In this document: in pieces, positions 38,190-56,950 of the stretch | How positions within the stretch are numbered: position 1 is the first letter of the stretch | Layout of the letters: the number at the start of each line of letters is the position of its first letter | Assembly: GCA_043803685.1 (NCBI GenBank) | Contig: JAZDJU010000072.1 | Span: forward strand, 28,889 to 92,888 | Direction: 5' to 3' | Source of the DNA: Candidatus Omnitrophota bacterium | Lineage (GTDB): Bacteria > Omnitrophota > Omnitrophia > Omnitrophales > Aquincolibacteriaceae | Length of the DNA stretch: 64,000 nucleotides | The notes under the pieces: model-generated | Database searches by the model: none | The model's input: only the letters and a program-made list of their open reading frames with translations | What the model was told of the DNA's origin: nothing | Program-made: the position numbers and the translations under genes

Positions 38190-38973
38190 GAAAGGGGTCA
38201 CACCTATTTATTTGCGGATCATACTGTCTCTGAAAAATTCTGATGGAAAGGAGGTTGGGTCATTCAAACTGATCGATGCCAAGAAAACGACGATTCATCC
38301 TTCCCAACATTCCTCATCACGCTATTCAGCGTGGAAATAATCGCCAAGATGTTTATTTTGATCAAGAGGACCGGGACTATTATTTTCGATTTCTTCACCT
38401 CGAAAGTTCCCGGAATCGGGTCCGAATTGGTGCTTATTGTTTAATGACGAATCATATTCATCTGCTTTTATATCCTGAGGATGCAACGGGGCTGGTCAGG
38501 ATGATGAAAAGCGTTTCGCAGAATTACACGCAATATGCTAATAAGAAATACCACCGCAGCGGAAAGCTTTGGGAAAACCGCTATAAGCTACATCTCGTGG
38601 ATCCTGACCGCCAGTGGTGGTTGGCGCGGTATATTGAGAAAAATCCATTGCGTGCCAGGATGGTCGAACAAGCTGAACATTATCCTTATTCCAGCGCAAG
38701 AGGGCATTTACTGGGGGAAGAGGATAAGATTTTAAGCTATGATATTCTCGGTGCGTTTAGGGATCGTTTCCGGAAGTTTTTTGAAGAAATTTCGAGTGAA
38801 GAGGAAAGCGAGTTGCGCCGGTTGCGGGAAGTAATCCAACAGGAGAAGGCTTTTGGCGGGCAGGAATTTTTGGAAAAAATACAAACGATTTTCGGATTCG
38901 ACTTTGAACTTAAAGAGCGGGGAAGGCCAAAACGGAATGAGTTATCCACAAATAAATAGGTGTGACCCCTTTC
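38190..38973 (+). mobile_element. Y1/RAYT transposase element bounded by 30-bp inverted repeats
   Basis: GAAAGGGGTCACACCTATTTATTTGCGGAT (38190-38219) matches the reverse complement of 38944-38973 at 29/30. Confidence 0.8.
38276..38959 (+). CDS. REP-associated tyrosine transposase (Y1_Tnp, HUH)
   Basis: MPRK.R, HAIQRGNNRQ, AYCLMTNHIHLL, GKLWENRY, YIEKNPLRA, YPYSS, RGRP. Confidence 0.93.
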   Translation: MPRKRRFILPNIPHHAIQRGNNRQDVYFDQEDRDYYFRFLHLESSRNRVRIGAYCLMTNHIHLLLYPEDATGLVRMMKSVSQNYTQYANKKYHRSGKLWENRYKLHLVDPDRQWWLARYIEKNPLRARMVEQAEHYPYSSARGHLLGEEDKILSYDILGAFRDRFRKFFEEISSEEESELRRLREVIQQEKAFGGQEFLEKIQTIFGFDFELKERGRPKRNELSTNK

Positions 38974-53769: not shown

Positions 53770-53959
53770 GAATATCCCCCAGGATTTTTTAGTTTCACGC
53801 CGAATGGAAAAGATCTGAACGCGAAAAGTATATCCGCAGGCAGAACCGTTTGGAAGCTTTTTATCAGGGATGGATTTGTATTGCATCATGCCGGTCCTTT
53901 CGGTATTTTAGCCTTAGAATTGGAACGGTTTTTTCAGAGTGCTATCCAAGGAGGGCGCT

Positions 53960-54646
53960 ATGGGAGCTTATGAATATACGATGGGGAGAGCGCTGGATCT
54001 CAGGGCTGAGCAGGAGAAGACGCTTGCGACGCCCAAGCTTCCGGCGAACCTGATATTGAAATTCATGTTCTGGCAATTCGACGTGCTTTACGGGAAAGCG
54101 CGTTCACTCCCGAAGGTGATGGTGCTTGAGATCCTGGCCCGCTATCCCTACTGGGCCTGGGAGAATGGCGCCTATCATTATCTTTCCAAGCTTTACAGTG
54201 GCACAAAAAAAGTCGCCGCTGAAAAAGTCGAGACGGCGCTCCGCCACATCCAGATGGGTCGCGAGTCCCAGGACAACGAACAGTGGCATATGCTTCTCTG
54301 GGCGGACCTTTGCCATCAGAAGGAGATCCGTTTGGGGAAAATCCGGCATTTTCTGATCCCCAGGTCCATGACACTCGTCTATTTTTTCATCACGCGTATT
54401 ATGTATTGGCTCAACCCTGTCTGGTCGTTCGCGATGAACGCCGCCTTCGAGTCCCACGCCGAGCATGAATACATGCTTTACGCGAAGGAGCATCCTGAGT
54501 TCGAGCAGACGCCCGTGGATTCCGTATGGTTCAAATATTATCCCAAACAAAAATCCCTGGCAGACCTTGTGCGTCGCGTGGGTTTGGATGAGCGTGACCA
54601 TATGAACCACTCATTGGAAGAAGTCGAGAGATTACGGAAGTGGTAA
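53960..54646 (+). CDS. Alternative-oxidase/PTOX-like di-iron protein
   Basis: LEILARYPY, ESQDNEQWH, FESHAEHEY, DERDH ferritin-like ligand set. Confidence 0.75.
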   Translation: MGAYEYTMGRALDLRAEQEKTLATPKLPANLILKFMFWQFDVLYGKARSLPKVMVLEILARYPYWAWENGAYHYLSKLYSGTKKVAAEKVETALRHIQMGRESQDNEQWHMLLWADLCHQKEIRLGKIRHFLIPRSMTLVYFFITRIMYWLNPVWSFAMNAAFESHAEHEYMLYAKEHPEFEQTPVDSVWFKYYPKQKSLADLVRRVGLDERDHMNHSLEEVERLRKW

Positions 54647-54688
54647 TGATTCACTGGCAATTTCCACATTTTGAAGAGTAGCACGTGG

Positions 54689-55048
54689 AGAATTTCCAAG
54701 GATCCTGAAGCGCGCTCCGAAGGTCAAGCGGGCACGGTGCCCTTGAGGTCTTGGTTTCGGCACCGGCGGTGCTCGAATCCAGCGATTCTCGCTCGCACTG
54801 AACGACCCATAAGAATTTATAGGAAGTTTAGTGCGGCACTCGCTTTCAATACAATTTTTTATAGAGAGCCAGTGCCGCCTGCGGCCTCATCCCGCAAATT
54901 CCCCCTTTCAATACGGGGGAAACCCTGCTTTGCGGGATTCCGGCAGCTGCCTCCGTCAAGACCTCAGGGCGAGCGAGACCGTAGATGCGAGTGAAGTTTT
55001 CCCTCGCTGGGGGAAAACGAACGGCGATGAAGGGTTCTTGGAAATTCT
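54689..55048 (+). ncRNA. Unassigned ~360-nt structured non-coding element
   Basis: 18-bp closing helix with two G-U pairs, at least 6 internal stems and a possible pseudoknot. Confidence 0.55.
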
Positions 55049-55060
55049 GTGACCGTTACT

Positions 55061-55102
55061 CTAGTACCGTGTCAATTTTGAAATTAGGGTACACGGTACT
55101 AG
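55061..55102 (+). repeat. CTAG-bounded 42-bp palindromic element
   Basis: CTAGTACCGTGT-CAATTTTGAAATTAGGGT-ACACGGTACTAG. Confidence 0.8.
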
Positions 55103-55130
55103 AGAAAAGCAGGAATTGACAGGTAATGAT

Positions 55131-56288
55131 TCAGGATTCAGTTCGCTCGTAAAGAGAAAGATCGGGAGCGGGAAGCTTGAGGTCGGGGAAGCGTCGCGCG
55201 ATGCTTTCGTGGAACAGATAATCGAGGTGGCCGTTATTTTCGGGGGCCTTCCCCAGGACGTCCCGCCAAACAGTTGTGTTCTCCATACAGAAATAGATAA
55301 AGACGTCCTTCCAACGCTTCCGGATCCCGGAAACAATGTGCTGGTAAATCTTCACTCGTTCCGGACGGAAATAGCGAATCTTCCCGTCGAGCCCCTTGAC
55401 GAATTCCGCGGTCGTGATCTTCGTTGCCGGGAAACGTGCTTCGATGATCTTTTTAAGCGAAGGCGGATAACGCAAACTGCCCAGGCTGATCCACATCACT
55501 TCGTTCTCCGGGACAGAAGCGGTCAGCTTTTCAAGGAGACTCGCATACTCTTCTTTCCATCCCGGGAGCATGAGCAGGGGGTCGAAATGGAATCCGAGGC
55601 GGTAGCCTTTCCTGAGGACCTTTCGCGCGGCCCTGAGTCGTGCCTCCAGGGACGCGGCTTTGTGTTCTTCCGTCCGGATGAACGCGTCGGGATTGAGCGA
55701 CCAGGAAACGAGGACGTTCTTTTTCGGGATCTCCGGTAGATGATCGATCGCGGCGGTCTTGGTCTTGATCTCAAGGATCATTTTCTTGCCCAGAGCGTGA
55801 CGAATCAGGCTCTTATTGAGTCCCGTCAGGCGGTCGAGCGCGAGGCTATCAGTCAGTTCTCCCGTGCCCATCCGGAAAAGTCGCCGGGGCTGGCTTTTGA
55901 TCAGAGCATCGATCTCGCGGGTGATATTCTGAATGTTCACATAGATCGTGATGAGCGGGACGTTCAGGAAATTTTGAAGGATGCAATAGGTGCAGTCGAG
56001 CGGGCAGTGGGTTTGCGCGTTGAGGGTCCTGTAGCGGCAGCAAAGATAATCCGTTCCTGTGGCAGGACACGGTTTGAGAAAGGCACCCTTGAAGTTCGTG
56101 AGCCAGAGACTTCTCTTCCCACGGGTGAGCGGTGTTTTTTCGATTTCCTTTAAGAAGACATCCTTGTTTTTTACGATGGTGACCGGGACCCTCCGAAGGC
56201 TTTTCAGAATGCGCTGTGCCAGGGGTGCCCGTGCGGCATTTTTATCCAGGTAAATATGATCGATCTTGGGGATCTGCTTTGAGCTCAT
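55131..56288 (-). CDS. Spore photoproduct lyase-family radical SAM protein
   Basis: CPLDCTYCILQ, RMGTGELTDSL, EIKTK, SWSLNP, FHFDP, YFCME. Confidence 0.85.
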   Translation of the reverse strand: MSSKQIPKIDHIYLDKNAARAPLAQRILKSLRRVPVTIVKNKDVFLKEIEKTPLTRGKRSLWLTNFKGAFLKPCPATGTDYLCCRYRTLNAQTHCPLDCTYCILQNFLNVPLITIYVNIQNITREIDALIKSQPRRLFRMGTGELTDSLALDRLTGLNKSLIRHALGKKMILEIKTKTAAIDHLPEIPKKNVLVSWSLNPDAFIRTEEHKAASLEARLRAARKVLRKGYRLGFHFDPLLMLPGWKEEYASLLEKLTASVPENEVMWISLGSLRYPPSLKKIIEARFPATKITTAEFVKGLDGKIRYFRPERVKIYQHIVSGIRKRWKDVFIYFCMENTTVWRDVLGKAPENNGHLDYLFHESIARRFPDLKLPAPDLSLYERTES

Positions 56289-56874: not shown

Positions 56875-56950
56875 CACTGTGTCAGATTTAAATCTATGGG
56901 TTCACAGTACTGTGCCGTGTACCCTAAATTCAAAATTGACACGGTACTAG
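56871..56950. repeat. Inverted pair of the CTAG palindromic element
   Basis: Degenerate + copy at 56871-56910 starts at the rlmH stop; the reverse complement of 56912-56950 matches the 55061 copy at 37/39. Confidence 0.78.

Follow-up and report, generated by a model that had tools for sequence, protein, structure and literature searches.

A probable new family of MITEs with unusual conservation of the fold, between convergent genes in Candidatus Omnitrophota

A densely base-paired segment (54689-55048) lies between two convergent genes in the window, the term used here for the whole 64,000-nt stretch of Candidatus Omnitrophota DNA that was analysed. This segment is very likely the interior of a nested composite non-autonomous MITE that was inserted between the two genes in this lineage. 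The element would represent a MITE family that is new and whose fold is conserved to an atypical degree. It stands out from ordinary MITEs by an interior of ~277 nt with 14-17 helices that covary across families, the constraint on this interior at resident sites and its flips of orientation.

The segment is housed in a gap of 484 nt between the convergent ORFs 53939-54646 (plus strand) and 55131-56288 (minus strand). The left gene encodes an alternative-oxidase-like (AOX-like) protein of 235 aa (Pfam AOX, E 3.2e-08) and the right gene a spore-photoproduct-lyase-like (SPL-like) radical SAM protein of 385 aa (Pfam SPL, E 1.9e-30). AOX-like orthologues with 85-87% identity were found by protein search in 8 of 15 same-genus genomes. 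In six of these eight loci, the SPL-like gene is convergent and abuts or overlaps the AOX-like gene, with at most ~15 nt between them, so that the site is empty. In G001, the AOX-like gene has a different neighbour. In G008 (locus L081, G008:C129), ~0.6 kb of DNA unrelated to the MITE lies between the AOX-like and SPL-like genes, and given this insert the junction may have been struck more than once.

At the occupied site, an exact 12-nt direct repeat is found on both sides, at 54642-54653 and 55122-55133, which we read as a target-site duplication of 11-12 nt. The left copy includes the stop codon of the left gene and the right copy that of the right gene, and the relatives carry a single short junction here. 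As one copy of the direct repeat would rebuild the compact junction of the relatives, the difference is best read as an insertion. The whole composite element spans 54654-55122 (plus strand, ~469 nt), with inverted repeats and the duplication at its ends. Its left boundary is also the point at which homology stops in copies from two further genomes (L116, L117).

The left terminal inverted repeat (54654-54665, plus strand, 12 nt) is a motif that recurs in genomes of the genus, with 28 exact matches in 9 of 20 genomes compared with 5 for the backwards control. The right one (55112-55122, minus strand, 11 nt) carries a single substitution relative to it and is one base shorter, and aligns to the perfect right end of the copy in G018. 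In that genome, perfect 12-nt inverted repeats stand 347 nt apart, which is the base form of the element. Direct repeats of 10-12 nt, read by eye, were also present outside the terminal repeats of three further copies in other genomes. Recognisable outer terminal repeats were missing in about half of the 20 copies inspected, and given the copies without them, the ~277-nt interior might be a unit of its own.

As far as PMC10969869 sets them out, the hallmarks of a MITE are a length below 500 bp, terminal inverted repeats of ~4-30 bp, flanking direct repeats and a stable predicted structure of the transcript. The element is below 500 bp both as the composite (469 nt) and in its base form (347 nt), it has terminal inverted repeats and direct repeats, and it combines an empty site with a lack of coding capacity and many dispersed copies. 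The first-pass annotation had left the choice between a structured MITE and an undescribed large ncRNA, to be decided by whether a BLAST search returned many dispersed copies or one syntenic copy. The dispersed copies, together with the empty site in six of eight relatives, the terminal inverted repeats and the target duplication, bear out the MITE reading. Prokaryotic MITEs are typically AT-rich in the account of PMC10969869, whereas the G+C content of this element is 55-65%.

A DDE-type transposase supplied in trans could bind the terminal repeats and make staggered cuts of 10-12 nt. At this locus, a MITE of ~347 nt with 12-nt terminal inverted repeats was inserted into the short junction that separates the two stop codons, duplicating 11-12 nt of target. 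When 20 genomes were searched for an autonomous partner, no terminal repeats were found paired at a spacing of 1-3 kb, these genomes being fragmented MAGs in which the insertion sequence may be unassembled. In its own genome, a one-mismatch search with the terminal repeat returned the window copy and chance matches only. Of seven lone exact matches to the terminal repeat in relatives, the one that was followed through (G012:C4) was a truncated copy with no transposase. None of the nine DDE_Tnp_1 (PF01609) loci found in 5 genomes carries the terminal repeat. At locus L164:2250-2340 (G012:C4), yet another palindromic repeat comes after this truncated left end.

The composite is itself nested. 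When the gap was compared by BLAST with its own genome, only two parts of it were repeated there, 54794-54882 (at least 12 copies) and 55061-55099. The first corresponds to an 82-nt two-hairpin repeat at 54793-54874 (plus strand, boundaries +/-3 nt), with at least 12 strong copies in the genome. Of 41 genomes searched with a covariance model of this unit, 24 gave a match, among them all but two of the other 19 in the genus (17 of 19), and many of the matches lie at contig ends. The unit is exactly missing from 25 of the 27 aligned scaffold copies of the genus ("scaffold" being used for the structured interior), which places an insertion at 54793-54874. A second host was identified in the same genome (G000), in a diverged scaffold copy on contig C40. 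The two units are 94% identical (77/82) and their hosts 59% (127/215), and the orthologue of the second host in another genome (G018_C22) is without the unit. Such similar units in such diverged hosts, together with the unit-free orthologue, indicate that the 82-nt unit is separately mobile and landed twice at one position of its host.

A CGC stands directly 5' of the unit in all 11 aligned copies, and conserved G-T wobbles occur in its two hairpins in 10 and 7 of the 11, respectively. No consistent target duplication or 3' repeat was seen in these 11 copies. A likeness to IS200/IS605-type elements or to REP/RAYT was weighed on account of the hairpins and the fixed 5' CGC, but no Y1 transposase flanked by the hairpins of the unit was found, and the three Y1_Tnp loci of the genome gave no match to the covariance model at E<=10. 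One of these three Y1 transposase ORFs is in the window at ~38309-38644 (G000 C72:67197-67532; PF01797, 48 bits; an open frame of 228 aa), with no 82-nt unit nearby. Seven copies of the unit lie inside another repeat of ~170 nt (G000 C101:10759 and 11801, C123:45347, C42:19644, C34:39088, C37:207685 and C31:71359). This repeat has four related arms of 9-10 nt whose alternative pairings could form a four-way junction or two local hairpins, and it is probably another MITE family that hosts the 82-nt unit.

The second repeated part is a 38-nt palindromic repeat at 55065-55102, with CTAG on both sides and perfect 12-nt arms that span 55061-55102. Alignment showed that it is missing from the 347-nt form in G018. 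Taking both nested repeats out of the composite leaves 349 nt (469 - 82 - 38), which can be set beside the 347 nt of the base form. Further copies of the palindrome are present in the genome, and their arms show compensatory changes. It also belongs to a longer dispersed repeat, found in the window at 56912-56950 (G000 C72:85800-85838) and elsewhere at C75:9996, C10:37531, C49:24600, C37:123981 and C79:35040. The longer copies have ~25 conserved bases downstream whose end can pair with the loop of the hairpin, giving two overlapping alternative hairpins.

In related genomes, a further repeat of ~70-90 nt, consisting of a hairpin and an AT-rich tail, is nested in copies of the interior (L098, L101, L103, L110 and L116, in G002, G006, G003, G010 and G012, respectively), where it occupies at least two different positions. 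Small repeats seem to land preferentially in the structured interior.

Once the 82-nt unit is taken out of 54689-55048, the interior of ~277 nt remains, with its 5' half at 54689-54792 and its 3' half at 54875-55048 (both plus strand). The first-pass annotation had treated the 360 nt as one unit in its ncRNA reading, and in this respect that reading did not hold; what stands of it, in altered form, is that the fold of the MITE interior shows strong covariation and that this interior is constrained in its evolution. Both halves have homologues in 13 of the 20 genomes of the genus and contain covarying helices. The number of matches ranges from 0 to 9 per genome, with 7 of the 20 having none. 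Among 301 genomes sampled from the phylum, BLAST detected the interior in 23, namely in 16 of 65 of its own family, in 3 of 3 and 1 of 12 of two other families (f7 and f9), and as two weak partial matches further away. A pattern scan of a species-level genome collection marked at least 118 loci; among the matches listed, two were true members by profile, both from Candidatus Omnitrophota, and one further match (E 7e-4, 12.6 bits) was probably due to chance. Members were found with nhmmer profiles and BLAST, by which distant ones may be missed. The interior thus forms a family with many copies, whose members occur in several bacterial families within a single order. Internally deleted copies of ~140 nt, in which only ~60 profile positions at the start and ~80 at the end are left, were observed at L126, L135 and L136 (G016:C10, G010:C1 and G014:C16).

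A coding function of the interior was considered and rejected. In the window copy, all six frames are interrupted, by 2-6 stops each. Most copies have some stop-free frame, but no open frame is common to the 35 copies. A riboswitch or leader was rejected as well, the genes next to 20 copies being unrelated housekeeping genes by Pfam. Among the 37 neighbouring ORFs of these 20 copies, Pfam detected no transposase or recombinase. When the ORF table was read for orientation, 9 copies ran along both neighbours and 6 against both. The first-pass annotation had found no tmRNA, RNase P, SRP or intron hallmarks, and Rfam 15 (4227 models) gave no match at gathering score in the whole window. In 54500-55300, four chance-level matches appeared at E<=10 (RAGATH-12, Moco, mir-365 and HgcF; E of at least 0.33 and far below gathering), and 10 uninterrupted copies of the interior gave no match at E<=1. 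The body of literature that was searched yielded neither a description of the element nor a paper joining Omnitrophota with non-coding RNA, and the phylum was not named in the papers listed by wider searches.

The dense base pairing of 54689-55048 was confirmed by folding. The plus strand reaches -169.4 kcal/mol, compared with -123.4 +/- 6.7 for 100 shuffles (z -6.88, no shuffle as good), and the minus strand -161.2 kcal/mol (z -6.39); the consensus folding energy is also nearly equal on both strands. The 18-bp outer helix that had been proposed (54689-54706 with 55031-55048, two G-T wobbles) is part of the minimum-energy fold. Five further proposed helices (54739-54753/54957-54970, 54795-54803/54826-54834, 54835-54847/54864-54876, 54889-54898/54929-54938 and 54996-55003/55011-55018) were recovered in the fold or in the list of inverted repeats.

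The proposed pseudoknot fared differently. Its helix (54787-54794 with 54971-54978) is perfectly complementary, yet it is not conserved in related copies. Its 3' arm overlaps 54973-54980, which in the consensus of the family pairs with 54722-54729 in a covarying helix, and its 5' arm is made partly by the end of the nested 82-nt unit. As the pairing is not conserved and its 3' arm is used by the covarying helix, the pseudoknot is probably fortuitous. The lack of conservation also counts against a large ncRNA that exists as a single syntenic copy with a pseudoknot. The strong fold (z -6.9), the intergenic position and the lack of an Rfam match would suit such an RNA, but it is absent from the syntenic site in six of eight relatives and is built from three dispersed repeats. 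The empty sites and dispersed copies refute this explanation, to which we give hardly any credence.

The fold of the interior consists of 14-17 helices maintained by compensatory substitutions. In the alignment of 27 copies from the genus, 91.4% of cells are paired and 59 of 89 pairs have changed on both sides, with 41-48% for slid controls; on four of five measures, not one of 500 shuffles attained the value observed. When 16 copies including other genera and families were aligned, 90.1% of cells were paired and 72 of 89 pairs had changed on both sides (slid controls 38-45%), and none of 500 shuffles reached the observed value for any of the five measures. The consensus structures were derived from the same alignments that were tested and are thus favoured over their slid versions, but the gap to the slid controls and the many full helix swaps are far beyond this bias. 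Among the changing stems, the loops and junctions keep their sequence. Two of the loops, 54780-54786 and 55007-55013 (alignment columns ~104-110 and 339-346), have conserved complementary sequences of 6-7 nt, and their stems covary. The single variable position in these sequences does not covary. The two loops could touch each other, or they could be inverted binding sites for a protein.

One explanation for this fold is that the ~277-nt interior encodes a large structured RNA, which would belong to a new ncRNA class with a role in trans or in cis. The MITE would carry this gene as cargo, and selection at the level of the host would keep it. The covariation of all helices across genera and families speaks for it, as do the conserved loops and junctions among changing stems and the lack of a matching Rfam family. 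So does the pattern of wobbles on the plus strand, where G-U exceeds A-C by 125 to 70 in the 27 genus copies and by 60 to 36 in the 16-copy set, a moderate bias of ~1.7-fold. The first-pass annotation had taken the two G-U pairs of the outer helix as favouring a plus-strand RNA. The nearly equal folding of both strands counts against an RNA gene. A further objection is that no sigma-70-like promoter or intrinsic terminator was detected in 54400-55400. The variable copy number, with seven genomes of the genus having no match, and the tolerance of internally deleted and repeat-interrupted copies also speak against it. We consider an RNA gene possible but less likely than not.

Alternatively, the fold could be needed at the DNA level only, as hairpins or cruciforms formed in single-stranded or supercoiled DNA for transposition or inversion, in which case the element would be purely selfish. 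This would account for the almost equal folding of both strands and for the repeated insertion of other small repeats into the interior at defined places. Two loops that share one short sequence, which occurs in both orientations, would also fit. Against this, DDE-type elements normally need only their ends, and the excess of G-U over A-C points to one strand. We regard a fold of DNA alone as rather unlikely, also in view of how the resident copies diverge.

Comparison of the flanks identified nine loci that are common to genomes, and at three of these the interior diverges more slowly than fourfold-degenerate sites of the adjacent genes. Identity of the scaffold compared with that of fourfold sites was 87.9% to 64.7% at the NAD kinase locus, 75.4% to 53.8% at the ADH-LpxL locus and 61.5% to 48.4% at the locus shared by G018_C22 and G000_C40, with the fourfold sites near saturation in two of these three loci. 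For the ADH-LpxL and the G018_C22/G000_C40 loci, short overlapping ORFs (<=132 residues, with identity <0.75) were left out of the comparison. At a fourth shared locus, the interior is 93-95% identical and the flanks 74-80%. At one shared locus, the outer terminal repeat is partly gone and the interior is kept. Both the slower-than-neutral divergence at the three loci and the retention of the interior beside a decayed terminal repeat speak for an RNA gene, whereas selection on a selfish element leaves the slow divergence of resident copies unexplained.

At four of the nine shared loci, the interior is inverted between species and the flanks and spacers are not. The break of each flip falls in the terminal arms of the interior, which are ~18 nt long. 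The flips may arise by recombination or gene conversion between these arms, or between dispersed copies aligned through them. A fold that acts in DNA would sit well with flips between terminal arms. They could also mean that the interior is an invertible DNA switch (inverton) flipped by a recombinase in trans, since inverted arms of ~18 nt flank it, it is inverted without its flanks and spacers, and its size is within the range of invertons. However, the 37 neighbouring ORFs of 20 copies include no recombinase, those matched by Pfam being housekeeping genes, and no promoter-like site was found inside the window copy, which lies between the 3' ends of its neighbours and would leave a promoter switch without a gene to act on. 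All flips observed are differences between species, and 14-17 covarying helices would be superfluous for an inverton. An inverton is therefore an improbable explanation.

These observations suggest that the fold matters after insertion. On the sequence evidence, its most likely level is that of RNA, be it as part of read-through transcripts or as a separate transcript, although we would put the chance of this at about even. There, the fold could, for example, have a stabilising, terminating or insulating role regardless of its orientation. A more specific proposal, which we consider less likely than not, is that one order of Omnitrophota has in this interior a new class of large structured RNA, or of structured invertible DNA module, that is spread by a transposon, kept by the host at its landing sites and able to switch orientation.

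Several known repeats can be compared with this element. The ERIC/IRU repeats of enterobacteria are intergenic imperfect palindromes that are transcribed with their neighbours, ERIC being a single hairpin of ~127 nt, and the compensatory changes reported in them suggest selection at the RNA level. The present interior is larger (~277 nt), with many helices, and the element has clear transposon ends. Invertons are likewise DNA segments bounded by inverted repeats and found in both orientations; here, no invertase or promoter was found, the copies adjoin housekeeping genes and the flips are between species.

The closest parallels are the MITEs Chunjie of Geobacter uraniireducens, QMITE2 of Coxiella burnetii and Correia, in so far as they are described in PMC10969869. 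Like these, the element is shorter than 500 bp, intergenic, multi-copy and without an ORF; it has terminal inverted repeats, direct repeats in young copies, size variants, old copies without ends and very stable predicted transcript structures. It differs from their description there in being G+C-rich, in its long duplication of 10-12 nt and in an interior that is a multi-branch fold of 14-17 helices, compensatory across several families, and not a simple long hairpin. It also differs in the constraint at resident sites and the in-place flips, and no parent insertion sequence was found here. The BOX, RUP and SPRITE repeats of Streptococcus pneumoniae, again in the description given by PMC10969869, are similar in that small repeats cluster, insert into each other and form modular, mosaic intergenic elements. 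They have no sequence relation to the repeats described here, whose nesting is site-specific, with the 82-nt unit at one position in two hosts of 59% identity. The large-RNA families of Rfam resemble the interior in size and degree of structure, but none of their covariance models matches it.

MITEs are usually treated as simple palindromic junk, and screens for structured RNAs usually discard multi-copy repeats. This element joins clear transposon ends with the signature used to call new ncRNA classes, namely many covarying helices, conserved loops and slower-than-neutral divergence. If the fold is not functional, the element is a warning that a syntenic ncRNA gene should not be called from strong folding and covariation alone. 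Its layered, site-specific nesting would offer a natural system in which to study how tiny mobile repeats choose their targets. Should the fold be functional, a complex structure of RNA or DNA would have been spread by transposition in a poorly known, uncultivated phylum, and if the proposed reading of the interior is true, it would be a mobile, domesticated RNA gene and not junk.
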